Assembly: GCA_036501005.1 (NCBI GenBank)
Contig: DASYBA010000090.1
Coordinates: 1 to 41,193 of the forward strand
Direction: 5' to 3'
From: Candidatus Xenobia bacterium
GTDB taxonomy: Bacteria > Vulcanimicrobiota > Xenobia > RGZZ01 > DASYBA01
Length of the DNA stretch: 41,193 nucleotides
In this document: in pieces, positions 7,491 through 39,914 of the stretch
Layout: each line of letters begins with the position of its first letter
Numbering within the stretch: the stretch's first letter is position 1
Made by a program: the position numbers and the translations under genes
Notes under the pieces: generated by a model
What the model was told of the DNA's origin: nothing
The model's database searches: none
What the model saw: only the letters and a program-made list of their open reading frames with translations

Positions 7491-7800
7491 GTTGGCCCTC
7501 CTCCAAGTCGATCCTGCGCCCCTGCCCAGTGGAACCCGGCGGTTTGGCAACATCGGGGCAATGGATTCCGACCTGCACTTGCAGTAGGATCTCTATAGTA
7601 GCCTGGATGGAAGTGTACCGACACCGGTGCACATCGGGGGACAGGCCTACACGGCGTCTTGCACGCGCCCTGAACGCATGCATGCCGTCGACAGCCGGCT
7701 ATTCGATAGCTGGTTCGCGCTCCTTGTGACCCATGCCAAAAATGGGCCATGGTGGACGCGCCCTCAGCATACATAGAGGAAGAGAAACGAGGTCACCACC

Positions 7801-7929: not shown

Positions 7930-7974
7930 GCGAAACTCCAAGGAGCTTCGCCCTACGACACAGAAACGCTTGCT

Positions 7975-8967
7975 GTGTCGCGGGAGACTGAGGTCCTTCA
8001 AGTCCTGCTCGACGTCAGCCGGTTGATCAGCTCGAGAAACCAGATGTCGACCGTGGTCCGGCGCGTGACGCAGGAACTGCGGAAGGTTCTGAACGCCGAC
8101 GCCTGCTCCATCCTGCTGCTCGATCCGGTCCGCAAGGAGCTGGCCTTTGCCGAGTCCTCCGGCCATACTCGCTGGGAACGCGACAACATTCGCTTCCGCA
8201 TTGGCGAAGGCGTGGCCGGTTGGGTGGCTCGGTCCAAACAGCCAGTGCTCATTGAAGACGTCGAAAACGACGACCGGTTCGTCAAGATCGCACGCCAACG
8301 CCGGCCCATGTCGTCCATGATCGGTGTTCCGCTGGTCGTGAACAAGCGGGTCATCGGGGTCGTATCGTTGACGACTCGCACCCAGGACCACCGCTTCAAC
8401 CAGGCTGATCTCCAACTGGCCGTGCTGCTCTCCGCGCACGTCGCCTTGGCCCTGGAGAACGGCCGACTGTACGAGATCTCCGTCATGGACGGACTGACCA
8501 ACGTCTACAACCGCCGCTACCTGACGCAGCGGCTACACCAGGAAATCGCCTACAGCCGTCGATTCCGACACCCGTTGACGCTGGTGATGGTGGACATCGA
8601 CTGGTTCAAGAAGATCAACGACACCTATGGCCACCAGGCCGGCGACCAGGTGCTGCGCCAGGTGTCGCAATTGTTCAACCGCAGCTTGCGAGAGTACGAC
8701 GTGGTCGCCCGTTACGGCGGCGAGGAGTTCGCCTTGCTGCTGCCTTCGCTGGAAAAGCTTTCCGGTGCGTCGGTCGCCGACCGACTGCGTTTCCATGTTG
8801 CCGATGCTCCCGTGCGCCACAAGGATCAACAGATTTCCGTCACGGCCAGCTTTGGGGTGGCCGCCTTTCCGGAGGACGCCGATGCGGCTGACGAACTGAT
8901 CCTGCGGGCCGATCAAGCCTTGTACCAGGCCAAACAAAGAGGCCGAAACCGCGTTGCGCTCGCATAG
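7975..8967 (+). CDS. GAF domain-containing diguanylate cyclase (GGDEF)
   Basis: N-terminal GAF-like region (LLDVSRLISS...GEGVAGWVARSKQPVLIEDV). GGDEF domain with an intact active site RYGGEEF. An RxxD I-site (REYD) lies 5 residues upstream of it. GTG start. Confidence 0.85.
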   Translation: MSRETEVLQVLLDVSRLISSRNQMSTVVRRVTQELRKVLNADACSILLLDPVRKELAFAESSGHTRWERDNIRFRIGEGVAGWVARSKQPVLIEDVENDDRFVKIARQRRPMSSMIGVPLVVNKRVIGVVSLTTRTQDHRFNQADLQLAVLLSAHVALALENGRLYEISVMDGLTNVYNRRYLTQRLHQEIAYSRRFRHPLTLVMVDIDWFKKINDTYGHQAGDQVLRQVSQLFNRSLREYDVVARYGGEEFALLLPSLEKLSGASVADRLRFHVADAPVRHKDQQISVTASFGVAAFPEDADAADELILRADQALYQAKQRGRNRVALA

Positions 8968-9084
8968 CTATCTGGCTGGTACCCAGAGCCCTCATAGGTG
9001 CCAAGGGGACACGGGGGGCTATGCGTCGAATGAAAAAACGATGCTCTGGGAAGAAGCCCGGAGAAAGCAAGGTGCGAGGACCCG

Positions 9085-23485: not shown

Positions 23486-24274
23486 ATGGAGTGGTTACCG
23501 GACAGACGTCGGGTCGCGGTCGCCGACGGGGTTGAACTGAGCGTGGTCGACCAGGCACCCGCTCGCGCGGCCGAGTGCCTGGTCTTCATCCACGGGGCAG
23601 CCGGGCATCTCGTGCACTGGCAGCACATGATCAAGCATTTCAGCCCGACGTATCGGACGGTCGCCATGGACCTGCGGGGCCACGGCGAATCCGACAAGCC
23701 TGAGTCGACCTATGCTCTCGAAGAGCTGGTGGCTGATGTGGAACGCCTGGTGGAGCAGTTGGCCTTGCCCGAGCGGTTCGTGCTGGTCGCCCACTGTTTC
23801 GGGGCCGCTCTCGCGTTGACGTACGCCGCCCGACATTCCGAGCGGCTGCGCAAGATGGTGCTGATCAGCACGTCGTCGCTGATTCCGCTCACCCCGGTGT
23901 GGCGACCCTTGTTGACGCTCCCGACCGTGCTGGTGGAACCGGTGCGGCGCATGGTGGCGAAGCGCGTGTGTTGCCCCACCCACGTGCTCAAACAGTTCCT
24001 GCCTCGCACGGTCTACCCGTGGAACGGCTGGAACCTGCTCGAGCAGATCAAGACGCCGACCCTGGTGTTGATTGCCGAGAACGACAAAATCATTCCACCC
24101 GCCTACACGCGCCGCATGGCCGAGCACATCGTCGGGTCCCGGGTGGAGGTCATCCGACATAGCTGGCACCTGCCCATCTTGGAGCGCCCAGACGCCGTCA
24201 ATCGGGCCATGGAGCGCTTCCTCACCGACCAGGTCAAGTCGTGGCGGGGCACGGTGGAGACGCCGGCCGAGTGA
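23486..24274 (+). CDS. alpha/beta-fold hydrolase/acyltransferase with Cys in the nucleophile-elbow position
   Basis: Oxyanion block VFIHGAAG. The nucleophile elbow reads VAHCFGA (TGT at 23795-23797) where the family has G-H-S-x-G. Asp (ENDKIIP) and His (SWHLPILE) are retained. Confidence 0.8.
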   Translation: MEWLPDRRRVAVADGVELSVVDQAPARAAECLVFIHGAAGHLVHWQHMIKHFSPTYRTVAMDLRGHGESDKPESTYALEELVADVERLVEQLALPERFVLVAHCFGAALALTYAARHSERLRKMVLISTSSLIPLTPVWRPLLTLPTVLVEPVRRMVAKRVCCPTHVLKQFLPRTVYPWNGWNLLEQIKTPTLVLIAENDKIIPPAYTRRMAEHIVGSRVEVIRHSWHLPILERPDAVNRAMERFLTDQVKSWRGTVETPAE

Positions 24275-25857
24275 CGATTCCCGAGCTTCTCGACGCGTCA
24301 CCCGATGGGGTGGCGGTGGTCTTCGGCAGCCACCGGGTGTCCTATGACGAGCTTCGCCGGCAAAGCCATGCCGTCGCGGCGGCCTTGGGCCGGGCCGGCG
24401 TCGGGGAGGGAGACCGGGTGCTGCTGTTGATGCCCAACATGCCCGCGTGGCTGGCCTGCTGGTTCGGCATCCTGCGATGTGGTGCGGTGGCCGTTCCCGT
24501 GCCGGTGACGGCGAGTGACACCGAGATCGATACCATCGCGGCCGAGGTACAGCCGGCGGGCATGATTTCGATTCGCATGTTCTATCCCGTGGTCTTGCGC
24601 ATGAGAACCTATACGGACCTGAAAGCCGTCATGATGGTGCACATTCGGGAGTACCTGAAAGTCTTCAAGCAGGCGCTTTTTCCGCTGTTGTCGGACCGGA
24701 TGGGGGCTGCCGCCTCGCCCGCCACGCGGGACCCGGAGGTGCTTTGGTTCCAGCAAGTCGTGCGCGAAGGAGGCAAAGTAGCGGTTCCAGTCTCGGACGA
24801 GGCCTTGGCTTCGGTGGTGTATACCAGCGGCGCGACCGACCGGCCGAAAGGCGTCATGCTGTCGCACCGCAACCTGGTGTCCAATGCACTGCAGTTGAAA
24901 GAGTGGGCGGGGGCGCGAGGCGCCGGGTCGATATTGGCGGCCCTGCCGTTGTCGCAACTCTACGCCGTCACCGGCTGTATCCACCTGGGTGCGCTGCTGG
25001 GGGCGACCCTCGTCTTGCTGCCGACGTTCGACATGAACGACGTGATGGACGCCATGAAGGCCCACCATCCCACGCTCTTCCCCGGCGTGCCGTCGATGTA
25101 CATGCGCCTGGCCGAGCATCGGGGCATTCGAGGGGCAGCCGTCTCCGGACTCAGGGCCTGCATCAGCGGCGGGGCGCCCTTGCCGGTGGAAGTGCAGGAG
25201 GCGTTTGAGCGGTTGACCCGGAGCCGCCTGGTCGAAGGCTACGGTCTCATCGAGTGTGGCCCCGTGACGCATGCCAGTCCACTGGATGGGCACAAGACGG
25301 GAACCATTGGAAGGGTGTTGCCGCAGACGGAAGCCCGCATCGTGGGATTGGAGTCTCGCGAGCCGCTGCCGGTCGGAGAGGTCGGCGAGCTGGAGGTGCG
25401 GGGGCCACAGGTCATGATGGGCTATTATCACGCGCCCGAGCTGACCGAGAGGGCTTTTCACGACGGCTGGCTGCGCACGGGTGACCTGGCCGTGTGCGAT
25501 ACGGAAGGGTACTACCAGATCGTTTGTCGGACACAGGACTTGATCGAAGTCGGCGACGGTCGGGTCATCTACCCGCGGGACGTGGAAGAGGTGCTGTACG
25601 AGCACCCGCAGGTGCTGGACGTGGCGGTTGTGGGCCTGGCCCGATCCGTCAAGGCGTGCGTGGTGCCGCGTCACGGTGAGTCGATACGGACCGGGGACCT
25701 CATCGAGTTCTGCCGACATCGACTGCCCGCGTGGAAGGTCCCGTCGGCCATCGAGGTGCGAGGATCGCTCCCGAGAACCGCGGACGGCAAGATTCTCTAT
25801 CGGGTGCTGCAAAACGAACTGTCGCGGGAGGCTTTCGTCATGGGGGATCAGATATAG
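24271..25857 (+). CDS. AMP-dependent acyl-CoA synthetase/ligase (ANL superfamily)
   Basis: AMP-binding motif YTSGATDRPKGVMLSH, plus GYGLIECG, TGDL and the C-terminal ..PRTADGKI. The GTG at 24271 overlaps the upstream TGA (GTGA). The ORF-track start at 24241 is less likely. Confidence 0.85.
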   Translation: MTIPELLDASPDGVAVVFGSHRVSYDELRRQSHAVAAALGRAGVGEGDRVLLLMPNMPAWLACWFGILRCGAVAVPVPVTASDTEIDTIAAEVQPAGMISIRMFYPVVLRMRTYTDLKAVMMVHIREYLKVFKQALFPLLSDRMGAAASPATRDPEVLWFQQVVREGGKVAVPVSDEALASVVYTSGATDRPKGVMLSHRNLVSNALQLKEWAGARGAGSILAALPLSQLYAVTGCIHLGALLGATLVLLPTFDMNDVMDAMKAHHPTLFPGVPSMYMRLAEHRGIRGAAVSGLRACISGGAPLPVEVQEAFERLTRSRLVEGYGLIECGPVTHASPLDGHKTGTIGRVLPQTEARIVGLESREPLPVGEVGELEVRGPQVMMGYYHAPELTERAFHDGWLRTGDLAVCDTEGYYQIVCRTQDLIEVGDGRVIYPRDVEEVLYEHPQVLDVAVVGLARSVKACVVPRHGESIRTGDLIEFCRHRLPAWKVPSAIEVRGSLPRTADGKILYRVLQNELSREAFVMGDQI

Positions 25858-26453
25858 GCCTGGCGAGCCTGCCAGATGGCATGGCACGTCACGTCGCCGT
25901 ACTCCAAGAGGAGGGCGAAGTCGCAGCCTTCTTCCCGGGCGTGACTGAGGGCTCGCGCGAGTCGCTCCAGGTCGGCCTTGACGTCGGCAGGAACTGGATG
26001 CTGCAGCAAGGCGCAGATAGTGTCGAGGCACTCCCACGGCCGGTGCCAGGCGAGGGTTTCGCCCTGGAACGGATCGCCGAAACCGAAGGTCGACAGGGGG
26101 GCCAGGCCAAGCTCCTCGGCCAGGGCGTCCAGTTGTTGGGAGCGGCGGGCCAGGGCATGACCGGACAGGTAGGCGGGGCTGTCGCCTGGGCGAGGTCTGT
26201 CGAATACGGGAATGATCCGAACGGCCGGGGAGCGGAAGCTGGAGACCGCACCGACCAACAGAAGCTGCGCGACGATGAGCCCGAAGAGCGCGGTCAGATG
26301 AACGTGCTGACCCCACCGATAATCGGTGAAGACGACCTGGGTGGAGGTGACGGCAAAGACCAGGCAGATGCACAGCCAGATGAGCACCGGCACGAGGTTG
26401 TCCCAACGGTGGCGGTAGTAGTAGGCGGGATAGCCCTGAGCGTCCCAGTTCAT
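25848..26453 (-). CDS. hypothetical membrane protein (201 aa: two TM helices + cytoplasmic C-terminal domain)
   Basis: ATG at 26453 (MNWDAQGYPAYYYRHRW). TM segments LVPVLIWLCICLVFAV and LTALFGLIVAQLLLVGAV. I recognised no motif. The 3' end overlaps the convergent ligase gene by 10 nt. Confidence 0.5.
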   Translation of the reverse strand: MNWDAQGYPAYYYRHRWDNLVPVLIWLCICLVFAVTSTQVVFTDYRWGQHVHLTALFGLIVAQLLLVGAVSSFRSPAVRIIPVFDRPRPGDSPAYLSGHALARRSQQLDALAEELGLAPLSTFGFGDPFQGETLAWHRPWECLDTICALLQHPVPADVKADLERLARALSHAREEGCDFALLLEYGDVTCHAIWQARQAYI

Positions 26454-26666
26454 GCGGGCCTGCCCGGCAAACAGAACGTGAGGCGTCGACCCATACCCCC
26501 ATGGTAACCCGCCGGCCGCCCGCCGCCCATGGCCCGTCCGTCCTGGTAGGACTGTTCCACTCGGCCGCTCCAACCCGAATTGAGTCTCACATATCGGACG
26601 AAGTGTATGAAATAGCCTGGGGGGGCGGCCGGGCAGCCGGCTGGCACAAGCCAGCCGGCGCAGTGG

Positions 26667-27629: not shown

Positions 27630-27716
27630 GAGGTCACCTGCTTTCTGTGGTTCGGTAGAGGTGCCCTAGTTAACGGCCCGCCATGGACGTTCCTCCAGCC
27701 CGGTGCCGAGCGCGAC

Positions 27717-27746
27717 AAGGCCAGCCTCGGAGACCGGGCTGGCCTT
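27717..27746 (-). terminator. stem-loop downstream of the repeat-protein gene (possible terminator, no U-tract)
   Basis: AAGGCCAGCC (27717-27726) and GGCTGGCCTT (27737-27746) form a 10-bp perfect stem. It lies 19 nt past the stop at 27765-27767. Confidence 0.35.
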
Positions 27747-27764
27747 GACGGATAGAAGGGACTT

Positions 27765-28940
27765 TTAGGCGACGCTCTTCAGGATGTGCCAGCCGAGCTG
27801 GCCGGCGTTCTTGCCCAGGTCGGAAACGGTGTTGATGGCGTTCTCGAAGGTGTGGCCGACCGTCGTCGCCGCATCGTCGATGGCCTCGACCGCCGTTGCG
27901 CCCACGTTGACGGCGGCATGACCCACCGTCTTGGCACCGTCGACCGCCAGGTCCTTGCCCGTGTGCCAGGCGTTCTTGCCCAGGTGGCCGGCGGCGCTGG
28001 CGACGTCGACGGCCGCCTGGCCAACCGTGATGGCGGTGTTGTCGATGGCATTGCCGACCAGGTTGCCAGTGTCGAGGACGGCACCCTTCCCGGCGTGCCA
28101 GGCGTGCTTCGCCAGGTGGGCGACGGCGGTCCCGCCATCGGCCACGGCGTCGGCGGCCGTGTCGACCACGTTGGCGGCCGCGTGTCCGACGGTCTTGGCC
28201 CCGTCAACCACCAGGTCCTTGCCCGTGTGATAAGCATTCACGCCCAGGTGGCCAACCGTGAGGCCGGTATCGGCCACCAGGTCTACCGCGGTGGCGACCG
28301 CATTGCCGGCCAGGTGACCGGTCGCAGCGACGGGGTGCCCGTCAGCCAGATCGTCGAAGAACTGGCCGGTGGTCAGCCCGAGGTTCTCACCTGCGTGCAG
28401 AAGGGTCTTACCCGTATCGACAACCAGGCCTTTGCCCGTGCCGTAGAGGTTCTTGCCCGCGTCGGCCGCCGTCTTGCCGACGTCGTAGCCTGCTTCAGCT
28501 ACCGTACCCGCCGCGTTGAGGACGGCATCCTTGCCGAAGTTCCAGGTGTCCTTGCCCAAGTCGGCGCCAGCTTCAACAGCGTGCCCACCCAGGTGGTCCA
28601 GGGCCGCCGCGGCGTCGCCCAGGGCCATGTAGCCGGTGATGCCTGCGTTGAGGGCGGCGTTGCTCACGGCGTGGCCGCTGTCGACCACGGCGTCCTTGCC
28701 AGTCTTGTAAAGATTCTTGCCGGCATCGACAGCCGTCTTGGCCGTATCTTCGGCGGCGATGGCCGCCGTGGCGACCGTATTGAGAGCCAGGTGGCCCACG
28801 CTCTTGCCGGTGTCGGTCACCAGGTTGGCACCGGTCTGGAACGTATCGGACACAGCATCGTTCACCAGCCGTGCCGAGTCGTTGCCTATGGTGCGGCTGA
28901 AGTTGGAATGACCGGCGGCGGTTGGATTGATGGTGTTCAT
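27765..28940 (-). CDS. 391-aa repeat protein of unknown function (Ala/Gly/Val/Asp/Thr/His-rich, 11-residue periodicity, no signal peptide, no Cys)
   Basis: ATG at 28940 with a purine-rich patch upstream. High third-position GC. The motif GKN(L/A)(Y/W)xxGKxxVxD recurs 7 times. The plus-strand ORF 27786-28970 is Gly/Arg/Val-rich and looks like an antisense shadow. Confidence 0.6.
   Translation of the reverse strand: MNTINPTAAGHSNFSRTIGNDSARLVNDAVSDTFQTGANLVTDTGKSVGHLALNTVATAAIAAEDTAKTAVDAGKNLYKTGKDAVVDSGHAVSNAALNAGITGYMALGDAAAALDHLGGHAVEAGADLGKDTWNFGKDAVLNAAGTVAEAGYDVGKTAADAGKNLYGTGKGLVVDTGKTLLHAGENLGLTTGQFFDDLADGHPVAATGHLAGNAVATAVDLVADTGLTVGHLGVNAYHTGKDLVVDGAKTVGHAAANVVDTAADAVADGGTAVAHLAKHAWHAGKGAVLDTGNLVGNAIDNTAITVGQAAVDVASAAGHLGKNAWHTGKDLAVDGAKTVGHAAVNVGATAVEAIDDAATTVGHTFENAINTVSDLGKNAGQLGWHILKSVA
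27768..28721 (-). repeat. in-frame tandem repeats inside the 391-aa gene (units of 33-55 codons; 264-nt higher-order repeat visible at DNA level)
   Basis: The GKNxW/Y motif starts at residues 74, 129, 162, 233, 277, 321 and 376, giving spacings of 55, 33, 71, 44, 44 and 55. The exact 18-mer CAGGTCCTTGCCCGTGTG occurs at 27948 and 28212, 264 nt apart. Confidence 0.8.
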
Positions 28941-28973
28941 TGGCTGTGGCCCCCTATCGAATTTGTCTGACCT

Positions 28974-28980
28974 ATTATCA
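28974..28980 (-). promoter_or_regulatory. candidate -10 element (TGATAAT on the minus strand) for the repeat-protein gene
   Basis: GATAAT lies 33 nt upstream of the ATG at 28940. It is an AT-rich hexamer in otherwise GC-rich DNA. The -35 element is weak. Confidence 0.25.
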
Positions 28981-29011
28981 CCGATCGCCCCCCGTCAGTC
29001 GTGAATGGGCG

Positions 29012-29038
29012 GTTAACAAAGGTAACGGCGATGTTAAC
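29012..29038. promoter_or_regulatory. three phased GTTAAC / GGTAAC / GTTAAC half-sites (candidate response-regulator binding array)
   Basis: GTTAAC at 29012, GTAAC at 29022 and GTTAAC at 29033, giving 10- and 11-nt spacing. They sit in the divergent region between the repeat-protein gene and the Spy/CpxP-like gene. Confidence 0.3.
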
Positions 29039-29162
29039 AGCCGGCCATCCCCACATCCCATCAGACCGCGCCGGATCAGGCGCCATCGCCCTACCGGCGG
29101 GGTTGCAGGACTCGCCACGCCACGTCGTAAGCTAGCGGGGACATCCATCGAAGGAGATCCCC

Positions 29163-29633
29163 ATGAACCGTCGAGGCGTGCTCCTCCCCGTCCTGCTCCT
29201 GGCCCTGGGAGCCCCCATTCACGCCCAGACTCCCGCGGGCTGCGCCCCCATGGTCCCGGCCTCCGCGAGCCCTGCCAGTCAGCACGGGACCGCTCTGTGG
29301 GACTACCAGACGGAACTGAGCCTGAGCACTGCCCAGGTCGACAAGATTCACAGCACCTACGACAGCTTCCAGAAGAAGATGATGGACAACGAACAGAAGC
29401 TGCGCGGCCTCAGCCAGGAGATCGCCGGCCTGGTCCGGCAGAGTGCAGACATCACTACCATCCGCGCCAAGATGCAGCAGGCGGCCAACCTCCAAGTCGA
29501 CGTCAGCATCGAAGACATCCAGACCGGGCGGGCCATCAGCGCCATTTTGACGCCCTCGCAGCGCAAGCAGTGGGCAGACATCCAGACCCAGCTCCGAGTT
29601 CAGCAAGGCGCAATTCCACCCCCCAACAAGTGA
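29163..29633 (+). CDS. periplasmic Spy/CpxP-family (LTxxQ motif) protein
   Basis: Signal peptide MNRRGVLLPVLLLALGAPIHA/Q. Helical, Gln/Lys-rich. LSTAQVDKI and LTPSQRKQW LTxxQ-type motifs. GAAGGAG RBS. Confidence 0.7.
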   Translation: MNRRGVLLPVLLLALGAPIHAQTPAGCAPMVPASASPASQHGTALWDYQTELSLSTAQVDKIHSTYDSFQKKMMDNEQKLRGLSQEIAGLVRQSADITTIRAKMQQAANLQVDVSIEDIQTGRAISAILTPSQRKQWADIQTQLRVQQGAIPPPNK

Positions 29634-29840: not shown

Positions 29841-31010
29841 ATGTACGACCTTCTCGTGGTGGGCGCCGGCCCGGCCGGCTCTCGGACCGCGGCCCTCATG
29901 GCGGCCGCGGGTCACAGCGTCGCGCTTCTGGAGGAGCATGCCGCCGCCGGCGAGCCCGTCCACTGCACCGGCATCGTGGGGGAGGACTGCATGCAACGCT
30001 ATGCGCTGCCTCCCGCGCTGGTGCGGAAGCTCCTGCCTCATTTCGAGGTGATCGCGCCCGACGGCACGGTGTGCCCCTTGCCGGGGTCCGTCTACGTGCT
30101 GGACCGCGCCGGACTGGACCGCCTTCTGGCCGAGCGGGCCCGTCACGCGGGCGCCGAGCTGCACACGGGGTGCCGCGCCCTGCAGGTTCAGGAGAGGGCC
30201 GATCGGGTGAGCGTCGAGGTGCGGCGGGCCGACGGCGTCGAGTGGTTGGAGGCCCGCCACGTGGTGCTGGCCTGCGGGGCCATGTCCACCCTGCCGCGGC
30301 GCAGCGGCCTAGCCGAGCCCGAGGCCTGGTATCGCTCCGTGCAGTCGGAGTGGGAAACCCCGCCGCCGACCACGGCTCGCGTACTGCTGGGCAGCGCCTT
30401 CTCGCAGGGCGCTTTTGCCTGGACAGTTCCGCTGGGCCCCACGAGCATCAAGATGGGTCTGCTGTCCCCCACGTCGGTGAGACAGGGCTACCACAGGCTG
30501 ACCGACGGGCTGCCGGGCCGCCCGTTGGGCCGAGCGGAGTGGCGACGCATGCCCATGGGTCTGGTCAGCCGGTCGGTGCGGGGCCGGGTGGCCGCCGTCG
30601 GCGACGCGGCCGGACAGGTCAAGACCACCACCGGCGGCGGCATCTACTATGCGCTACGCTGCGCCGACTTGCTGGCGCAAGCCCTGCTGGCAGGTCGGCT
30701 GGACCGCTATGAACCGTCCTGGCGCGAGCTGGTGGGACGAGACCTGCACAGCGGCCGCCTCGCCCGCCGCCTGCTCGAACGGTTGGACGACGCCGAGATG
30801 AACCGCCTGGTTCGGCTGTGCCGCCGCGACGAGGTGCAAGGGCTCCTCGCCAACCACTGGCACTTCGACTTCCACCAGGGCATTCTGCGGGCCCTGGCGA
30901 CCGCCCCCGGCCTCCGCCGCCTGGCCGCCGAGACCTGCACCACCCATGGTTTCCAGCACCTGCTCAAAGTGACCGACCGGCTGCGCCTGGTTCCAGGGCT
31001 CCGGCGTTAG
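29841..31010 (+). CDS. geranylgeranyl reductase family FAD-dependent oxidoreductase
   Basis: N-terminal dinucleotide fold YDLLVVGAGPAGSRTAALMAAAGHSVALLE. The following ...GEPVHCTGIVG... and ...VGDAAGQVKTTTGGGIYYAL blocks are characteristic of the GGR family. Confidence 0.8.
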   Translation: MYDLLVVGAGPAGSRTAALMAAAGHSVALLEEHAAAGEPVHCTGIVGEDCMQRYALPPALVRKLLPHFEVIAPDGTVCPLPGSVYVLDRAGLDRLLAERARHAGAELHTGCRALQVQERADRVSVEVRRADGVEWLEARHVVLACGAMSTLPRRSGLAEPEAWYRSVQSEWETPPPTTARVLLGSAFSQGAFAWTVPLGPTSIKMGLLSPTSVRQGYHRLTDGLPGRPLGRAEWRRMPMGLVSRSVRGRVAAVGDAAGQVKTTTGGGIYYALRCADLLAQALLAGRLDRYEPSWRELVGRDLHSGRLARRLLERLDDAEMNRLVRLCRRDEVQGLLANHWHFDFHQGILRALATAPGLRRLAAETCTTHGFQHLLKVTDRLRLVPGLRR

Positions 31011-31063
31011 AAATTAACAAAAACGACTAGCAATAGAACGGCACTTGGGATACTCTAAAAGCA

Positions 31064-32356
31064 ATGGTTGAGCGGATCACGGTGCGGGGAACCCCCACCC
31101 GGACAGAACGTCAGGCTGCGCCTGCAGGCGTCGACAAGACGACCTCGGGCGTTTCTCATGACCCCGGGCTGGCGCAGGCTTCGCAACTCAAGCGTCTGGC
31201 CCAGACTCGGCCCTCGTTTAACGTGGAGGGGCGATTCCCGTCCGCCCACTGGGCATGGACCGAGCGGTTGCACGACCCCCACCCCGAGCTCATCCAGCGT
31301 GACTTTCTCGAGGTCCAGAAGCAACCGGATGCGGACAATGTGCGAGCCTTCGGCACCGAGACGCCGTCCTCGAGCGACGTCCTGCTGCACTACGCCGGGG
31401 ACCCCCCGGCGGGAGTTCCTGTCCACCCCAGACCCGTTCTCCTCGTGCACGGCGCCGCCCACGATTCGAACTATTTCAAAGACGGGCACGACGGCAAGGT
31501 CGGCGGCGGCCTGGCCGATCATCTCCGCCAGCAGGGCTTCAAAGTCTACGCCGTCACGTTTGCCCACAACCAGGACGACAACTTCTTCTGGGCCCAGCAG
31601 ATCAACAACGCCAAGACCCGCATCAAAACCCTGGAGAAGGTCGACGACATCGACATGGTGGCCCACAGCAAGGGCGGCCAGGCGGCCCAGATGGTGGTGT
31701 CGGATTTCCGCCAGCCCTGGATGACGGCCTACCCCCAGGACGTCCACCGGGTCGTTTTCGTGGCGGCGCCCCTGGGCGGTATCGATTATTCGTTCCGGCA
31801 CCCGGCGGTCAGCCTCGGCATGGCCTGCATGCCCGACTTTACCTTCAACGCCCCCACCTCGTGGGATCGTACGTACTACTGGGGGCTGCCCAAGAGCACC
31901 ACGGCCATGAGCTTTGGCGCCGGCATCGACGGGCCCGGCCCCGACTACTTTCCCGGGCAGCGACAGATCCTGGGCCGGTGGGACGAGTCCTATCCGCTGC
32001 CCCGCTTTGAGACCGACTGGAAGACCACCTACTACGGCGGGCAGGGTGTGGTCAGCCACGGCGAGGGCATCGAACACTATATCGATCAAGGCGGCGACAC
32101 GGTCGAGAAACTGCAGGAAAAGGGCATCCAGCCGGGGGTTGAGGTGGCCGTGCTGGCTGGGGATCGCCCCAACCTGCCGTCTTTCTACAACGAAGAGACC
32201 GGGCCGAGCGACGGCCTGCTGTTCACCAAGAGCGCGACCGCGCTTCCGCCGGGGGCCAACCTGCTCGAGACCCGGGTCTTGCCGCTCAACCACATGGACC
32301 TGGTTCGCAAACCGGCCGGCATGGACGCCATCGCCGACCTCCTGTCTCGCCCCTGA
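31064..32356 (+). CDS. alpha/beta-hydrolase, lipase-like (AHSKGG nucleophile elbow), with ~100-aa unrecognised N-terminal extension
   Basis: PVLLVHGAAHDSNYF (oxyanion region) and DMVAHSKGG (A-x-S-x-G lipase-type elbow). No signal peptide is visible. It lies between the GGR and UbiD genes, with gaps of 53 and 3 nt. Confidence 0.55.
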   Translation: MVERITVRGTPTRTERQAAPAGVDKTTSGVSHDPGLAQASQLKRLAQTRPSFNVEGRFPSAHWAWTERLHDPHPELIQRDFLEVQKQPDADNVRAFGTETPSSSDVLLHYAGDPPAGVPVHPRPVLLVHGAAHDSNYFKDGHDGKVGGGLADHLRQQGFKVYAVTFAHNQDDNFFWAQQINNAKTRIKTLEKVDDIDMVAHSKGGQAAQMVVSDFRQPWMTAYPQDVHRVVFVAAPLGGIDYSFRHPAVSLGMACMPDFTFNAPTSWDRTYYWGLPKSTTAMSFGAGIDGPGPDYFPGQRQILGRWDESYPLPRFETDWKTTYYGGQGVVSHGEGIEHYIDQGGDTVEKLQEKGIQPGVEVAVLAGDRPNLPSFYNEETGPSDGLLFTKSATALPPGANLLETRVLPLNHMDLVRKPAGMDAIADLLSRP

Positions 32357-32359
32357 CGC

Positions 32360-34135
32360 GTGGGATATCAGAGCCTGCAGGCCTGCGTCGCCGACCTGGA
32401 ACGGACCGGTCGACTGATCCGTATCGAACAGGAAGTGGACGCCCACCTCGAGGCCGCCTGCATTGCCCGCCGGGTGTTCCAGGCGGCCGGCCCGGCCGTG
32501 TTCTTCGCGCGGGTGAAGAACTGCGCATTTCCCATGGTCGGGAACATGTTCGGCACCATGGAGCGAGCTCGCTACATCTTCCGCGACACGCTGGAAGCGG
32601 TGGGCCGTCTGGTCGACCTGCGGCTCAACCCCACCGAGGTGCTACGTCGGCCGTGGCGGTTTCTGTCCCTGCCGCGGACGGCCTGGCACCTCCTGCCGCA
32701 GGATGTAGCGGATGGGCCCGTCATGGCCTGTCGAACCACCGTCTCGGCCCTGCCTCGGCTGCAGAGTTGGCCTGACGACGGCGGGCCTTTCATTACGCTC
32801 CCGCTGGTCTACACGGAAGATCCGAAGAGGCCGGGACCGTGGCGCAGCAACCTGGGCATGTATCGGATCCAGCTCACGGGCAATCAATACCAGACCGACG
32901 CCGAGGTGGGCATGCACTACCAGATCCACCGGGGTATCGGCATCCACCACGCCGCCGCGGTGGCCAAGGGTGAGAAACTGCCCGTCACGGTGCACGTAGG
33001 AGGCCCACCGGCCCTCACGCTGGCGGCCATCATGCCGCTGCCGGAAGGCATGCCAGAGATCGCCTTCGCCGGGGCTCTGGGGGACCAACGAACCCGGCTA
33101 TCGGACGGCGTCCTGGTCGACACGGACTTCGTGCTGAAGGGGTTTGTCGATCCCACTCGGCGCCTGCCCGAAGGACCTTTCGGCGACCACCTGGGCTACT
33201 ACAGCCTGGCCCATGATTTCCCGGTCATGACCGTCGCGAGCGTGCACCACCGCCGAGATGCGATCTGGCCTTTCACTACCGTGGGCCGCCCCCCGCAGGA
33301 AGACACCATGTTCGGGGCCCTCATTCACGAACTGACGGGGCCCTTGATTCCGGCCGTCCTGCCGGGCGTCAAGGCCGTGCATGCGGTCGATGCAGCGGGC
33401 GTCCATCCGCTCCTGCTGGCGATTGGCAGCGAGCGCTACACGCCCTACGAAAAGCGCACCTCACCGCGGGAAATCCTCACCCAGGCCAACGCCATCCTCG
33501 GTCAGGGGCAACTTTCCCTGGCGAAGTACCTGTTGATCGTCGCCGGGGACGACAACCCGAACCTGTCGATCAACGACATTCCGGCCTTCCTCCACCACCT
33601 TCTCAGTCGTATTGACTTTCGCCGTGACCTGCACTTCCAGACCTGCACCACCATCGACACGCTGGATTACTCCAGCGGAACCATGCACATGGGGTCGAAG
33701 CTCGTCATGGCCGCAGTCGGAGCGCCCCGACGGGCGCTATCGAACGAGGTGCCGAACCTGCCGGCGAGCTTGCGGAACCCGCGCCTGGTCATGCCGGGGG
33801 TTCTCGCGGTCGAAGGGGATCCGATCGTCGACCACGTGCCCACCGATCCTCGCTGGGAGGGCACGCCCCTGTGGGTCGTGGTCGACGACAGCGCCTTCAC
33901 CGCCGCCACCTTATCGAACTTCCTCTGGGTCACGTTCACCCGTTCGAACCCAGCCGCCGACGTGCACGGCATCGATGCCTTTATCGAACAGAAACACTGG
34001 GGCTGTCGGGGCCCCCTGGTCATCGATGCCCGCCGCAAACCGCACCATGCGCCGCCTCTCGAAGAAGACCCGGCCGTGATGCACCGGGTCGACGCGCTGG
34101 CCGCCCCAGGCGGCCCGCTGCACGGGATTCTGTGA
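32360..34135 (+). CDS. UbiD-family (prenylated-FMN-dependent) decarboxylase, long form (591 aa)
   Basis: UbiD-type N-terminus (LQACVADLERTGRLIRIEQEVD). The conserved blocks WPDDGGPFITLPLVYT, NLGMYR and HHAA follow. GTG start 3 nt after the upstream stop. Confidence 0.8.
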   Translation: MGYQSLQACVADLERTGRLIRIEQEVDAHLEAACIARRVFQAAGPAVFFARVKNCAFPMVGNMFGTMERARYIFRDTLEAVGRLVDLRLNPTEVLRRPWRFLSLPRTAWHLLPQDVADGPVMACRTTVSALPRLQSWPDDGGPFITLPLVYTEDPKRPGPWRSNLGMYRIQLTGNQYQTDAEVGMHYQIHRGIGIHHAAAVAKGEKLPVTVHVGGPPALTLAAIMPLPEGMPEIAFAGALGDQRTRLSDGVLVDTDFVLKGFVDPTRRLPEGPFGDHLGYYSLAHDFPVMTVASVHHRRDAIWPFTTVGRPPQEDTMFGALIHELTGPLIPAVLPGVKAVHAVDAAGVHPLLLAIGSERYTPYEKRTSPREILTQANAILGQGQLSLAKYLLIVAGDDNPNLSINDIPAFLHHLLSRIDFRRDLHFQTCTTIDTLDYSSGTMHMGSKLVMAAVGAPRRALSNEVPNLPASLRNPRLVMPGVLAVEGDPIVDHVPTDPRWEGTPLWVVVDDSAFTAATLSNFLWVTFTRSNPAADVHGIDAFIEQKHWGCRGPLVIDARRKPHHAPPLEEDPAVMHRVDALAAPGGPLHGIL

Positions 34136-34299: not shown

Positions 34300-34662
34300 T
34301 CAGACGACCAGGGCGGCGGCGCGAGTTGAGACGATGGTGAGCACCTGATCGAGACGGGTCTTGCTGAGCAGATTCAAATACCGCGTGTTGCTGACGACGA
34401 CCACCAGGTGACTGTCCCGGGCCCGCACCGAATGATACACCGAGATCACGAAGCCCAGGCCGCTGGAGTCGATGTGGGTGGCCCCGTCCAGTTCAAGGAT
34501 GTAGTCGGTCAGCCCATCGTCGATGTATTGGTGGAAGTCATGCGACATCTCGGGCGCGGAGTAGTAGTCGAGCGCTCCTACGACCGTCAGAAGGCAGCGG
34601 GTTGGGGATAGTCGGGTGCCGACCAGTCGGGCCTCCGATTTTTCAGGAACAGGCATTTCCAT
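34300..34662 (-). CDS. STAS-domain protein (anti-sigma-factor antagonist, SpoIIAA/RsbV-like)
   Basis: LDGATHIDSSGLGFVISVY with the conserved phosphorylatable Ser in DSSGLG. About 120 aa from the ATG at 34662. The ORF-track start at 34692 is also possible. Confidence 0.8.
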   Translation of the reverse strand: MEMPVPEKSEARLVGTRLSPTRCLLTVVGALDYYSAPEMSHDFHQYIDDGLTDYILELDGATHIDSSGLGFVISVYHSVRARDSHLVVVVSNTRYLNLLSKTRLDQVLTIVSTRAAALVV

Positions 34663-34811
34663 GTTGGGTCCGTGCAGAGTCCCCCTCTGCACTGACTACC
34701 CATAAATCAGTCGTGCCAAACGACCTTAAGACAATTTAGCCTCATCACTGCGCCGATGGCCGCGAATCCCCGTCGATAGGATCGGGTCGCCCGCTTATCC
34801 AACCTTGAGGT

Positions 34812-36380: not shown

Positions 36381-39300
36381 TCAGTCGTCTTCGTGGGTAC
36401 TCGTCTTCAATAGTTCGGGCGGGCCCGGCCAGGCTGGCGCGACCTGCAACAACCGCTGCCGCACCCCGTCCGGGTTGAGCCAGCCGAAGCCCCAGCAGGA
36501 CAAGGCGTGGTCCAGCCGCGAGAAGTCTTCATCCTGCCAGATCCGATCGGCCAGGGGTCTGACCTGGCGGGGCCGACGAGCCGCCTCCAGGCAGAGGAAC
36601 GCCGACAGGCAGGGCTCGGCCCGCTCATCCCACATGGCCACCGGGTGCGTCTCCAGCTCCCAGTCCAGGTGCCACACCCGCACCACGCCGTCGCTGGCGC
36701 CCGATACCGCGTGGCTGGCATCCTGGTTCAGGCACACCGCCGTGACCGCTCCCCCGTGTCCGGCCAGGCGCATCGGCACCTCATCGGGCGAGTCGACGTT
36801 CCACACCCGCAACGTCCGGTCCCGGCTGCCGCTGACGACGTGACGCCCATCGCAACTCACCGCGACACACAGCACCGACCGAGCGTGGCCTTTCAACACG
36901 GCCTTCTGGCGGCCTCGGACCAGGTCGAACACCTGGACGGTCCCGTCCTCTCCGGCCGACACCGCCGTGCGGCCGTCGGGGGTGAGCACGACCTGGTTCA
37001 CCGCGCCCTGATGCCCCCGCAGCACCTGCATACACTTGCCGGCTCGCACGTCGTAGATGCGCACGCGGCCTCCGCTGGTCGCCAGCGCCAGCACCCGCCC
37101 GTCCGGGGTGATGGCCACTTGCTCGCCCAGGCCCTGGACGTTGGCGGTACAGTTTCCCGTCTCGACATCCCAGACTCGCAAGCGGCCTTCCTGTCCGGCC
37201 GTGACCGCCAGGCGTCCATCCGGCGTCATGCAGAGCCCGCGCACCCGGCGCAGGTGCCCTGCCAGTCGCCGTATCACCTGCTCCCCCGGCACGTCCCACA
37301 CCAGCACGTCCTCGTCGTCGCCGACGGTCAGCGCCCGCTCGCAGTCCTCGCGCAGCACCATGTGGCGAACGGCGGCCTGCTGCCCGGCCAGGGTCATCAT
37401 GCACTCGCCCGTGCCCAGTTGAAAGACGCGCAAGGTGGCGTCTTCGCTGGCCGAGACCAGGTAGTGGCCGCTCCCGTCCAGGCTCAAGGCGGTGATGGGA
37501 CCGTGGTGGCCGGTCAAGGACGCCGTCAACCAGGCCCGCTGCGCCCGCCGGCGCGAGGCGTTGCGCAGCATGGCCGCCCACAGCTCCAGGCAGCGGGGGG
37601 CCCTTTCGTAGCCGGGAACCTGGCGGGCCGCCATGAGGGCCTGCAAGGCCCGGTCCATGTGGCCGGAGGTCCATGCTTCCTCCACCTGTTCCAGCCAGTG
37701 CAAGTACTGCAGGCGGTTGTCCATCAGCTCTGCCGAAGTGCGGGGCCGCACCACCATGGGGGGGGTCTGCGGGGTGTCCCAGGCGAGATGCCAGACCCGC
37801 ACCGCCATGTCGGAACCGGCCGCCAACGCTCGCTCGTCTGTGAGCGCCACGCCGTGCAGCCAACCGGCGCCCGCTCGCATGGTGCGAGCGCAGCGGCCGG
37901 TCTTGACCTCCCACAGGCGCATGCTGGCATCCTCCGAAACGGAGACCGCCCACCGGCCATCCCGAGTCACCGCCACGTCTCGCACCGGCGCCCGGTGCCC
38001 GTGCAAGACGAGGTGGCAGCTCCCCGCCTCCACGTCCCACAACCGCAAGCTGCCGTCGTCGCTGGACGTGATCACCTGGTTCGACAACAGGGCCAGTCCT
38101 CGTATCGGACCCGTGTGTTCCGCCAGATCGTGCACCAGATCGCCGTGCGTCACATCCCACAAGGTCAGCCGGCGATCTTCCGATACTGCAGCCAGCAAGC
38201 CGCCCGACTCGGTGAAACGCAGGCGGGTCACGGCCCCATCGTGGGCGGCTTGCGTTCTGAGCAGCTTGCCGTGCTTGTCGAAAAAGCGTATCGAACCGCC
38301 CTGGCCTCCGGTCGCGACCAGGCGCCCCTGGGCCAACACCGCCACGCTTCGCACCGGTTCCTTGTGCCCGCCCATGGTCGAAATGACCCGCCAGGAGGCC
38401 ACGTCGATGAGGCGGGCCGTGCCGTCCTGCCCGGCGGTTCCGAGCAGCAGGCCGTCGGGCGAGACGACCAGGTCATGGATGGGACCCTGGTGCACTCGCA
38501 AGGATCGGATCATGCGCCCGCTGTCGAAATCCCAGACATGCAGCATGCCGTCGTCGTCGACGGCCGCCACGCGACCCTCCCCGCAGATGGCCACCGCGTT
38601 GAGCGCCGCTGCCCCTCCCGACAGGGTGGCCACCACGTGAAAGCCGCCCTGCGCCTGCTGTCGCACCCGCCCCACCGTCTGCACCGCCAGCGGATCGCCG
38701 AGCGCTTCCCGCTCGGCCGCCATCAGCTCTTCGATGGCCAGGTCCTCATCGCCGCGCTCCTTCTGAATGCACCCGGTCAGATAGCGCACCACCCAGCGAT
38801 CGCTGGGCGCGGTATGCAGCTCCCGCATGCGCTCCAGCAGCGCTTCGTCGGTGATGCGGCCTTGCCGCCAGCGCAACACCTCCCGGTTATAGCAGGCGAA
38901 CAAGTGCCAAGGGTCGGCCAGCACGGCGTCGTCCAGGTAGCGGCGCGCATCGTCCAGCCGCCCCAGGTCCATCATGGAGGCGGCCCGGTTGTTGAGCATG
39001 TCGGCCCGCTGATCGACTTCGCCCGGCCGGGGACGTGGATAGGCAGTGCCATACAAAGCCAGCAGCGTCTGCGCCACCACCGGCACGGTGGGACGCTCCT
39101 CCGGCCGTTCCTGAAAGCACCAACGGAGAAGATTCGATACGGCTTCCGGCATCCACAGGCCGTCGGAGGTGACCTTGTCCAGGAACTCATCCAGCTCGTG
39201 CATGGCGTTCGGCCCATACGAGGGCCAGTGGCGGAGAAACATCTCCAAGACGGTCAGCCCCCATGACCACACATCGGTCGGTTGCCCCACCGGCTGGCCC

Positions 39301-39914
39301 ATCATCTGCTCGGGCGAGGCGTAGGAGGGCGTCGCGGTGACCGAGCCGGTGGCCAGGGTCACGCGGGCGAAGTCGGCCAGCCCGAAGTCGCTGACCTTGG
39401 CCGTGCCGTCGGGCATCATCATGACGTTGGACGTCTTCACATCCTGGTGCACCAGCCCGCTCTGATGGGCGTGTTGGAGACCCCAGGCACATTGGATGGC
39501 GATGTCGAGGATGCGGTGCAGGGCCTCCTCGGGTGTCCCGGCGTACAGGCTGCCGGTGTGCACCCAGTGGGCGAGGTTGCCCCCTGGAACCAGCTCGGTG
39601 AACACCCGGGGCAGCCCGCCGAGAACCCGCACGTAGTGGCACACCACGATGTGCTGGTGCAATCCGAGCCGGACCCAGTGCTGGGCTTCCTTGACGAAGG
39701 TGTCGATGGCCAGAGACGCCATGGACGAGGCCCGCGGGCTCTTGACCGCCAGCTCCAGGTCCCATTCCCGGTGTCGGACCTTGTACACCTTGCCCATGCC
39801 GCCCTCGCCCAGGAGAGCCGTGACCTCATACCGGTCCAGGATGACGTCACCGACGTCCCATTCGGCCGGGACGTCGTCCTCCAGGGTGCGCGAGGAGACC
39901 AGGAGCGGGCGCAT
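36381..39914 (-). CDS. Hanks-type Ser/Thr protein kinase fused to a helical linker and 14 WD40 repeats (two 7-bladed propellers)
   Basis: Kinase motifs GEGGMGKVYKV, AVK, HQDVKTSN (non-RD), DFG and SPE. There are 14 WD40-type blade ends: LHVWD, LTLWD, LRLWD, MRLWE, VRVWH, LRVFQ, VLVWD, LRVWD, VRIYD, VQVFD, LRVWN, VRVWH and others. Confidence 0.9.
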   Translation of the reverse strand: MRPLLVSSRTLEDDVPAEWDVGDVILDRYEVTALLGEGGMGKVYKVRHREWDLELAVKSPRASSMASLAIDTFVKEAQHWVRLGLHQHIVVCHYVRVLGGLPRVFTELVPGGNLAHWVHTGSLYAGTPEEALHRILDIAIQCAWGLQHAHQSGLVHQDVKTSNVMMMPDGTAKVSDFGLADFARVTLATGSVTATPSYASPEQMMGQPVGQPTDVWSWGLTVLEMFLRHWPSYGPNAMHELDEFLDKVTSDGLWMPEAVSNLLRWCFQERPEERPTVPVVAQTLLALYGTAYPRPRPGEVDQRADMLNNRAASMMDLGRLDDARRYLDDAVLADPWHLFACYNREVLRWRQGRITDEALLERMRELHTAPSDRWVVRYLTGCIQKERGDEDLAIEELMAAEREALGDPLAVQTVGRVRQQAQGGFHVVATLSGGAAALNAVAICGEGRVAAVDDDGMLHVWDFDSGRMIRSLRVHQGPIHDLVVSPDGLLLGTAGQDGTARLIDVASWRVISTMGGHKEPVRSVAVLAQGRLVATGGQGGSIRFFDKHGKLLRTQAAHDGAVTRLRFTESGGLLAAVSEDRRLTLWDVTHGDLVHDLAEHTGPIRGLALLSNQVITSSDDGSLRLWDVEAGSCHLVLHGHRAPVRDVAVTRDGRWAVSVSEDASMRLWEVKTGRCARTMRAGAGWLHGVALTDERALAAGSDMAVRVWHLAWDTPQTPPMVVRPRTSAELMDNRLQYLHWLEQVEEAWTSGHMDRALQALMAARQVPGYERAPRCLELWAAMLRNASRRRAQRAWLTASLTGHHGPITALSLDGSGHYLVSASEDATLRVFQLGTGECMMTLAGQQAAVRHMVLREDCERALTVGDDEDVLVWDVPGEQVIRRLAGHLRRVRGLCMTPDGRLAVTAGQEGRLRVWDVETGNCTANVQGLGEQVAITPDGRVLALATSGGRVRIYDVRAGKCMQVLRGHQGAVNQVVLTPDGRTAVSAGEDGTVQVFDLVRGRQKAVLKGHARSVLCVAVSCDGRHVVSGSRDRTLRVWNVDSPDEVPMRLAGHGGAVTAVCLNQDASHAVSGASDGVVRVWHLDWELETHPVAMWDERAEPCLSAFLCLEAARRPRQVRPLADRIWQDEDFSRLDHALSCWGFGWLNPDGVRQRLLQVAPAWPGPPELLKTSTHEDD

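Follow-up and report, generated by a model that had tools for sequence, protein, structure and literature searches.

A gene for a two-armed hendecad repeat protein with phased histidines in a Candidatus Xenobia genome

The DNA considered here is contig DASYBA010000090.1 of a Candidatus Xenobia bacterium (assembly GCA_036501005.1), which is 41,193 nucleotides (nt) long and is called the window below. Its minus strand carries, at 27765..28940, a gene whose 391-residue product is a two-armed, indel-free array of 11-residue repeats (hendecads), coherently amphipathic with an 11/3 periodicity and bearing a conserved polar stripe. This gene is genuine, coding and native to the chromosome, and its product matched no family in searches of Pfam, NCBIfam, PHROG, PADLOC and PDB sequences, in agreement with the first-pass annotation, which could not assign it to any named family. 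A continuous 11/3 ('3-11') alpha-helix of about 27 nm is predicted for each arm. By analogy with the giant amphipathic helix of perilipin 4 (Plin4), we tentatively favour the view that the protein is a conditionally folded helix that would coat an interface, its polar stripes zipping helices together laterally.

Coding frame, repeats and predicted fold

The gene, its signals and the parts of its product are as follows.

27765..28940, minus strand: repeat-protein gene, with ATG at 28940; 391 residues, 38.5 kDa, isoelectric point (pI) 5.3
27786..28970, plus strand: antisense open reading frame (ORF) of 394 residues that covers essentially the whole repeat-protein gene, with the statistics of a shadow frame
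28950..28955, minus strand: putative Shine-Dalgarno-like AGGGGG, read from the sequence, 9 nt 5' of the ATG
27713..27750, minus strand: terminator-like hairpin 15 nt past the stop, with 14-nt arms and a 10-nt loop, without a U-tract
28329..28922, minus strand: N-terminal arm, 18 hendecads (residues 7-204), mean hydrophobicity <H> 0.26 and hydrophobic moment <uH> 0.24 at 98.2 degrees per residue
28314..28328, minus strand: insert AATGH (residues 205-209), right after Gly201-His202-Pro203, the sole break of register
27786..28313, minus strand: C-terminal arm, 16 hendecads (residues 210-385) with the best-conserved 44-residue (4 x 11) super-repeats, moment 0.27

The minus-strand ORF is the coding frame and the plus-strand ORF its shadow, as shown by base composition at the three codon positions, by a codon model and by the divergence between repeats. 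Indeed, the guanine plus cytosine (GC) fractions at codon positions 1/2/3 are 0.69/0.48/0.84 for the minus ORF, resembling the Pfam-confirmed genes of the window, and 0.83/0.48/0.69 for the plus ORF, the mirror image expected for a shadow frame. A codon model trained on 18 Pfam-confirmed genes of the window gives the minus frame 0.462 bits per codon, at the top of the range of real genes (0.26-0.475), versus 0.18 for the plus frame. Treating the internal 44-residue units as paralogues, the ratio of non-synonymous to synonymous substitution rates (dN/dS) is 0.36-0.98 in the minus frame versus 1.8-4.2 in the shadow frame. The same 391-residue product was called by the Joint Genome Institute (JGI) on an independent 29-kb metagenome contig (3300036780 / Ga0376652_0002957); no paper mentions the sample identifier 3300036780. 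The minus-strand product expected by the first-pass annotation is thus real, and so are the properties listed for it there (391 residues, no Cys, almost no Pro, neither signal peptide nor transmembrane helix). The gene is probably well expressed. This case shows that an ORF without a homologue in about 15 billion proteins can be validated as coding through its own internal repeats. The plus-strand ORF, for its part, illustrates well how a long spurious frame can arise in DNA of 65% GC.

The hairpin downstream of the gene has an RNA folding energy of -31.5 kcal/mol (z = -4.1), and none of 200 shuffled sequences folds as well. It separates the repeat-protein gene from the LLM oxidoreductase gene that follows, so that the former looks monocistronic on this sequence and hence only weakly tied to its neighbours. 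A consensus promoter scan of the minus strand upstream of the gene found nothing, and a GATAAT at 28974-28979 was spotted by eye only. The promoter region between the repeat-protein gene and its divergent neighbour also contains, at 29008-29042, an 11-nt inverted repeat (GGCGGTTAACA / TGTTAACAGCC) holding two GTTAAC palindromes 21 nt apart, which could be an operator. A further GTTAAC is found at 27669-27674, just 5' of the LLM start, and three of the four GTTAAC sites of the window therefore flank the repeat-protein gene; their total over the 41 kb is not significant alone (at least four are reached in 14 of 100 shuffles).

The protein is composed of 79 Ala (20.2%), 53 Gly (13.6%), 41 Val (10.5%) and 39 Thr (10.0%), which together make 54% of the residues, with 19 His, 2 Pro and no Cys. 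Ala plus Leu amount to 28%, hydrophobic residues to 45%, Glu plus Lys to 6.6% and charged residues to a fraction of 0.159; the 40 Asp and Glu against 22 Lys and Arg leave a net charge of about -18, or roughly -1.5 per 33 residues. The seven motif starts reported in the first-pass annotation (residues 74, 129, 162, 233, 277, 321 and 376) are all correct, with spacings of 55, 33, 71, 44, 44 and 55. The sole spacing that is not a multiple of 11, namely 71, is explained by the 5-residue insertion at 205-209, which is likely a hinge or turn. When this insertion is allowed, 34 consecutive hendecads stand in register from residue 7 to 385, followed by ILKSVA. Their consensus reads [AL]-[AGV]-x-[DN]-[AT]-[GA, or W/Y/F about every fourth unit]-[KNH]-T-[VG]-[GAK]-[DH], with four positions standing out:

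repeat position 1: Ala or Leu in 30 of 34 units
repeat position 4: Asp or Asn in 31 of 34
repeat position 8: Thr in 21 of 34
repeat position 11: Asp, His or Asn in 24 of 34

The description of the protein as His-rich has to be toned down, as His makes a modest 4.9% of the residues, but the regular spacing is real: 10 of the 19 His fall on position 11 (P = 1.6e-6), typically within D-x3-T-V-G-H-x3-N. Accordingly spaced pairs are enriched, with 11 occurrences of H-x3-[DN] versus 2.9 expected (z = 5.5) and 22 of [DN]-x6-[DH] versus 7.7 expected (z = 6.0). Aromatic residues (Trp/Tyr) recur about every 44 residues. The self-similarity of the protein under a BLOSUM matrix peaks at lag 44 (z = 12.3), then at 88 (10.5), 22 (10.2), 66 and 11 (6.3); two of the 44-mers, starting at residues 232 and 320, share 68% identity as protein and 77% as DNA. 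We also screened 2,666 six-frame ORFs of 150 residues or more, drawn from the window and 82 other loci, and such self-similarity at lag 11 was restricted to this locus and to a phage protein discussed below (P0001), including the frames that overlap them. The period of the DNA is 132 nt, with an identity of about 63% between neighbouring units and of 78% between units separated by 264 nt. The 264-nt repeat and the identical word previously noted are thus real, although the word is not an 18-mer at 27948 and 28212; it is a 19-mer at 27947 and 28211, and the basic period is half as long. These identities, together with the fact that Tandem Repeats Finder detects almost nothing at this gene, indicate that the DNA repeats are old and diverged and do not form a recent slippage array.

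The 11/3 periodicity of hydrophobicity anticipated by the first-pass annotation appears as a Kyte-Doolittle Fourier peak at 3.70 residues (z = 15.6), with a power of 152 versus 64 for the 95th percentile of shuffled maxima, and with harmonics at 5.5 and 2.2. On the Fauchère-Pliska scale, the hydrophobic moment stays coherent over about 190 residues in each arm and reaches 0.24 and 0.27, versus 0.05 +/- 0.03 in shuffled sequences. In an 11/3 helical wheel, the small residues of positions 8-1-5-9-2-6 span a broad and weakly hydrophobic arc of about 195 degrees, where Gly clusters on one side (positions 2, 6, 9 and 10) and is missing from the other (positions 1 and 8). A continuous polar ridge runs through positions 4 and 11 and Thr 8, and Lys is found at positions 3, 7 and 10. 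The overall hydropathy is close to neutral (grand average of hydropathy, GRAVY, +0.087).

AlphaFold2, run without an alignment, models residues 6 to 390 as helix, interrupted at 81-82, 187-190, 200-203 and 294-297, at low monomer confidence: the predicted local distance difference test (pLDDT) is 51 and the predicted template modelling score (pTM) 0.27. Helix throughout at such confidence is what would be expected of a conditionally folded helix. An 11-residue unit might also be read as a beta-solenoid, a reading that we rejected given the dominant 11/3 harmonic, the lack of Cys, the Ala plus Leu content and the all-helical model. We similarly rejected a secreted or membrane-anchored protein, as neither a signal peptide nor a transmembrane segment was found in the sequence (the highest 19-residue Kyte-Doolittle window is 1.2).

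Sequence relatives and genomic neighbourhood

Searches for relatives of the protein were almost empty. When 1.84 billion representative proteins were scanned exhaustively with phmmer, the only match was the phage protein P0001 (E = 5e-8, over seven stretches). Word-indexed protein searches with the whole protein, with a 7-row repeat profile and with a joint profile of the protein and P0001 were empty; these searches are weakly sensitive for a protein of this composition, and they did not recover P0001 either. The scan of PHROGs gave no match at E <= 0.1, and a profile of the 44-mer repeat retrieved from the PDB only chance matches to short-chain dehydrogenase/reductase (SDR) proteins. No relative was found in metagenome and viral contigs scanned with the protein or with a 2-row repeat alignment, nor in phage and plasmid collections searched by tblastn, and the 80 genomes that encode an orthologue of the adjacent LLM oxidoreductase present no related or 11-periodic ORF near it. 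Since both the bias handling of HMMER and the word index are unfavourable to such a composition, distant repeat relatives could be missed by these searches. Foldseek with the low-confidence model found nothing below E = 0.05 (best E = 0.06) and returned generic long-helix proteins, i.e., BAR domains, chemoreceptors, and tape-measure or tail proteins.

P0001 is encoded on a 20-kb phage contig:

ENA ERZ14210015 NODE_1398 (locus L002), 6905-10369: P0001, 1154 residues, between terminase and portal genes

It forms a singleton cluster, and a viral contig scan for its relatives found nothing. It too is built as an array of hendecads ([WFT]-V-G-N-A-A-x-D-V-G-N), self-similar at lags 22, 11 and 44. 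Its repeats match tape-measure PHROGs (phrog_58, E = 3.6e-27), annotated tape-measure proteins of Streptococcus and Lactobacillus phages, and a solved tape-measure protein chain (9h4p). P0001 also scores 30.4 bits against the Pfam family CsmC (PF11098), above the gathering score of 26.3, which is probably an artefact of repeat composition. The place where a tape-measure gene is usually found, following the tail-assembly chaperone, is taken by a separate 1176-aa gene, so that two 'ruler-like' hendecad proteins may be encoded by this phage.

The likeness between the Xenobia protein and P0001 exceeds what composition and periodicity would give. Their Smith-Waterman score is 287; permuting the 11 repeat columns of the Xenobia protein lowers it to 106 +/- 37, and none of 150 permutations attains 287, whereas shuffling the order of whole hendecads leaves it at 267. 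The likeness is thus motif-specific, carried by the ordered motif T/W-V-G-[H/N]-A-A-x-[N/D]-V-G common to both. It could reflect either common descent or convergence on one helical solution, and this motif-level link to tape-measure-type repeats hints at an exchange of hendecad modules between phages and cells.

The surroundings of the gene are those of an ordinary chromosome with metabolic and signalling genes, and no phage or tail-morphogenesis gene is present in the 41 kb. The repeat-protein gene is divergent from a gene for a Spy/LTXXQ-like secreted protein and lies upstream of the LLM oxidoreductase gene on the same strand. Other features of the window are listed here.

29163-29633, divergent neighbour: protein with a signal peptide and weak LTXXQ, Metal_resist and Spy matches, below curated cut-offs
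23486-25857, plus strand: alpha/beta hydrolase with a Cys at the nucleophile elbow (LVAHCFGAA) and long-chain fatty-acid-CoA ligase, overlapping by 34 nt
25848-26573, minus strand: family-less ORF between the acyl-CoA ligase and LLM genes, 241 residues by the ORF listing and 201 by JGI, with two hydrophobic segments
29841-34135, plus strand: run of three genes adjoining the Spy-like gene, for a geranylgeranyl-reductase-family flavoprotein, an unassigned 430-residue alpha/beta-hydrolase-like protein and a UbiD-family (menaquinone-type) decarboxylase
5441-6304, 9085-11901, 12478-14952, 34300-34692 and 36381-39914: a dense content of signalling genes

The gene order proposed by the first-pass annotation stands on most points. 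The divergent neighbour is indeed divergent and predicted to be secreted; its Spy/CpxP-like nature is less firm, as the matches are weak, and 'Spy-like' is a plausible label only. The LLM gene encodes an F420-dependent oxidoreductase of the TIGR03560 type, whose best genomic relatives, of at most 53% identity, are found in metagenome-assembled genomes of Ca. Limnocylindria / Chloroflexota. Further along, the Cys-nucleophile alpha/beta-fold protein is confirmed by its AHCFG elbow; its best NCBIfam similarities are to PcaD and, weakly, to an intracellular short-chain-length polyhydroxyalkanoate (PHA) depolymerase, all below cut-offs. The overlap of its gene with that of the acyl-CoA ligase suggests that the two are translationally coupled. 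The three-gene run, in which the flavoprotein reaches 159.2 bits versus a cut-off of 158.8, looks like an isoprenoid-quinone tailoring cluster. The ORF at 25848-26573 had no match in Pfam, NCBIfam or PADLOC. The signalling genes encode, among others, a triple-FHA-domain protein of 938 residues, within a stretch of 73% GC, a second FHA protein, a HAMP-GAF-SpoIIE (RsbU-type) phosphatase, a STAS protein and a 1177-aa Ser/Thr kinase fused to multiple WD40 propellers. Formate-tetrahydrofolate ligase, an M24 peptidase, a histidine kinase, a GGDEF protein and a sedolisin are also encoded in the window, where Rfam and tRNA scans were empty.

An interface coat, a rod and other explanations

As we picture it, the protein would be cytoplasmic, acidic and largely unfolded on its own, like the Plin4 giant amphipathic helix and alpha-synuclein, with its arms of 18 and 16 hendecads joined by the 5-residue hinge region that contains Gly and Pro. 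One half of the helix surface would be a broad face, weakly hydrophobic and lined by small residues (Ala/Leu, Ala/Thr, Val/Gly, Ala/Gly/Val) with a Trp or Tyr about every 44 residues, bordered by the conserved Asp/Asn(4)-Thr(8)-His/Asp(11) stripe and then by a Lys-bearing stripe. Folding would occur once the small-residue face meets a hydrophobic/aqueous interface, for instance that of a membrane with packing defects or of an inclusion made of neutral lipid or polymer, and binding would be the sum of many weak contacts over the length of the helix. The Asp/Asn-Thr-His stripe and the Lys stripe might then zip neighbouring helices, or the two arms of one molecule, into a stable coat. We lean towards this reading because the Plin4 helix is the closest physico-chemical match to the protein. 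A Gly content of 13.6%, unusual in stable coiled coils, is typical of surface-induced helices. The neighbouring genes for lipid and isoprenoid enzymes (long-chain fatty-acid-CoA ligase, geranylgeranyl-reductase-family protein and UbiD-type decarboxylase) speak weakly in the same direction. Several observations weigh against such a coat. In Pfam and protein searches, the protein has no homology to any lipid-binding family, and the window holds no storage-lipid, PHA synthase or other inclusion-forming gene. The net charge is about -18, whereas changing the charge of Plin4 from +1 to -1 per repeat abolishes its targeting to droplets unless hydrophobicity is raised (PMC5889406). Asp/Asn, and not the Lys of class-A helices, stands at the polar/apolar boundary. 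Moreover, the conserved positions 1, 4, 8 and 11 fit equally well the core and flank of a hendecad coiled coil, and the sole sequence relative, P0001, has tape-measure-type repeats, i.e., those of a self-assembling rod and not of a lipid coat.

These last two points lead to the main rival reading, possible but doubtful in our estimation, in which the protein would be a self-assembling hendecad coiled coil, either an antiparallel two-arm hairpin or a straight, non-supercoiled bundle or rod of 27-58 nm. It would be a cellular relative of phage tape-measure-type hendecads, serving as structural rod, spacer or ruler. The 11-residue period and the 3.67-residue hydrophobic spacing of hendecad coiled coils are present, and two candidate cores can be drawn, although the monomer model is of low confidence: positions 9, 1, 2 and 5 (V/G, A/L, A/G/V, A/T) or positions 1, 4, 5 and 8 (A/L, D/N, A/T, T). 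Both are small or polar, so that the rod would have a core of small residues or a partly polar one, with Asp/Asn at d and Thr at h coordinating water or ions; the conserved positions 1, 4, 8 (and 5) map to hendecad a, d, h (and e). That the only match among 1.84 billion representatives carries tape-measure-type hendecads ([WF]VGNAAxDVGN), with a likeness that column permutation shows to be motif-specific, argues for a rod, and two arms of nearly the same length on either side of a Gly/Pro hinge would suit a hairpin. It is also known that the core of a coiled coil can be fully polar and that such coiled coils get mis-predicted as disordered (PMC13580157). On the other hand, the protein gave no match of its own to PHROGs, to the Pfam TMP and Scy models or to PDB chains, it is devoid of a Trp/Phe marker recurring at 11-residue intervals, and phage or tail genes are missing from the window. 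Its 13.6% Gly with an Ala/Gly/Thr core would make a poor stable bundle, the pTM of the AlphaFold2 model is 0.27, and the best Foldseek match is at E = 0.06.

The phased His invite a further explanation, namely a periodic scaffold for binding or buffering metals, in which a ladder of His would form low-affinity Zn/Ni/Cu sites, maybe co-regulated with the Spy/ZraP-like gene. On the same helical ridge, Asp lies seven residues before His and Asn four after, in accordance with the position-11 His (10 of 19) and with the enrichment of H-x3-[DN] and [DN]-x6-[DH]; the weak LTXXQ, Metal_resist and Spy matches of the divergent neighbour and the 11-nt inverted repeat in the common promoter region are also in its favour. 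We nevertheless consider it quite unlikely, as His makes only 4.9% of a protein devoid of Cys and of HxxxH or HxH clusters above chance, and the i+4 partner is mostly Asn, a poor metal ligand. In addition, the family matches of the neighbour are all under curated cut-offs, and that protein is secreted whereas the repeat protein has no signal peptide. Protection against desiccation or ice, by a LEA-like or a type-I-antifreeze/'Maxi'-like helix with a T-x2-[D/N/H]-x7 repeat (Thr, Ala/Leu and Ala/Thr at i, i+4 and i+8), appears very improbable. The repeat may resemble the type I antifreeze motif: besides the 11-residue period, Thr occupies position 8 in 21 of 34 units, with Asp, Asn or His three residues on in 14 of 34, T-x2-[DNH] is over-represented (z = 3.7), and 30 of 34 units have Ala or Leu at position 1 (i+4). 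Nevertheless, Ala reaches 20% versus about 60% in type I antifreeze proteins, LEA_4 does not match, and a GRAVY of +0.09 departs from hydrophilins and LEA proteins. The gene might finally be a lineage-specific repeat expansion without a conserved role, either a young gene or a decayed mobile-element remnant with a coding signature. The lack of orthologues in the 80 genomes with an LLM orthologue, in the metagenome, viral, phage and plasmid collections and in protein searches would be explained in this way, but we give it little credence: the repeats are old (47-77% DNA identity) and yet their pattern is preserved in the protein (dN/dS below 1), the codon usage ranks with the best in the window, and the frame is intact over 1.2 kb, with a Shine-Dalgarno-like site and a terminator hairpin.

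Returning to the conditionally folded coat, a bolder version of it is that the protein is a prokaryotic counterpart of the Plin4/synuclein giant helix, arisen independently or from phage tape-measure-type hendecads, and coating an inclusion or a membrane. We regard this as unlikely. In such a case the Asp/Asn-Thr-His ladder would zip the helices, possibly in a manner switchable by pH or metals; if true, this would be the first bacterial example of such a coat design, and evidence linking phage 'ruler' repeats with cellular coat proteins. More generally, giant 11/3 helices of low hydrophobicity have so far been characterised mainly in perilipin 4, and they would be no metazoan speciality if the protein is expressed and behaves as predicted. 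It would then offer a compact, 391-residue, acidic and His-phased model for the lateral assembly of amphipathic helices driven by polar stripes, and for the question of interface binder versus polar-core coiled coil that was raised for predicted-disordered sequences (Hartmann et al., 2026).

Comparison with known repeat helices

Plin4 is the known system that comes closest. It is made of 29 33-mers (3 x 11), repeated 'entirely without deletions or insertions' (PMC5889406), and the Xenobia protein is likewise an uninterrupted array of 11-mers. The Plin4 helix has an <H> of 0.293, a <uH> of 0.257 and a charged fraction of 0.15, and is made of 20.9 mol% Thr, 15.4 Gly, 14.9 Val and 10.7 Ala, without Pro (PMC5889406). 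It is unfolded in solution and binds neutral-lipid surfaces through many weak contacts. The Xenobia protein falls in the same range of hydrophobicity, moment and composition, with an <H> of 0.26-0.33 (about 0.3), a <uH> of 0.24-0.27 (about 0.25), a charged fraction of 0.15-0.16, a richness in Gly, Val, Thr and Ala, and almost no Pro or Cys. Its 391 residues are about the length of Plin4-12mer, a 396-aa fragment that serves as a droplet-coating construct (PMC5889406). The polar residues of Plin4 are proposed to hold adjacent helices laterally (PMC8064757). The differences are as clear. The Xenobia protein comes from a bacterial host and presents no detectable sequence homology to perilipins, no match to the Perilipin Pfam domain, and neither a PAT nor a 4-helix-bundle domain. 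Its super-repeat is of 22/44 residues instead of 33, and it is net acidic (pI 5.3) where Plin4 carries +1 per 33-mer, so that its polar face is not positive. It has conserved Asp/Asn and phased His, whereas Plin4 is almost devoid of His (0.1%), and it is richer in Leu and in aromatic residues (3.8% versus 0.5%).

Among other lipid-binding helices, alpha-synuclein 1-95 has a <uH> of 0.26 on the same scale, but no Synuclein Pfam match was obtained and the consensus of the Xenobia repeat differs from the KTKEGV-type 11-mer. The exchangeable apolipoproteins (A1/A4/E, PF01442) have in common with it the 22-residue period (z = 10.2). The analogy drawn by the first-pass annotation does not extend further: the Xenobia protein has only 2 Pro, its interfacial residues are Asp/Asn and not Lys, so that its charge pattern is not class-A, and PF01442 does not match. 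CsmC, from the chlorosome envelope, is the only lipid-monolayer family with any Pfam signal, and at 9.0 bits (E = 1.8) this signal is far under the 26.3-bit cut-off.

Group 3 LEA proteins (LEA_4, PF02987; 11-mer TAQAAKEKAGE) also consist of tandem 11-mers predicted to form amphipathic helices. Hydrophilins are defined by a strongly hydrophilic, charged composition, which the Xenobia protein lacks, given its positive GRAVY, its 45% of hydrophobic residues and its poverty in Lys and Glu; no LEA_4 match was found at E <= 10, and the desiccation analogy first suggested for this gene is disfavoured. Type I antifreeze proteins are built from T-x2-[D/N]-x7 repeats with about 60% Ala; T-x2-[DNH] occurs in 14 of 34 Xenobia repeats, but Ala amounts to only 20%.

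The 11-residue repeats of phage tape-measure proteins, which we take to be the Pfam TMP repeat PF05017, are also represented by PHROG 58/1535/167/305. They resemble the Xenobia protein in their 11-residue period over hundreds of residues and in their richness in Gly, Asn, Asp, Ala and Val, and the motif TVG[HN]AAx[ND]VG is common to it and to P0001, its single relative, which has such repeats. The Xenobia protein differs in being only 391 aa long, outside any tail-gene context, and in lacking both a hydrophobic or transmembrane region and a C-terminal domain. Tape-measure repeats are marked by Trp/Phe every 11 (or 11-11-18) residues, known as Pattern 1 (PMC3271669, Belcaid et al., 2011), and Trp/Phe every 11 residues are described elsewhere too (PMC5099701). 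A search of the Xenobia sequence with a regular expression for this marker was negative, not even three consecutive [FW]-x10 units being found.

A long 11/3 amphipathic repeat helix is thus a known architecture, and the Xenobia protein, as far as its sequence tells, departs from each known family in at least one defining feature. Its repeat is an unusual variant of this architecture: acidic, His-phased and with conserved Asp/Asn.

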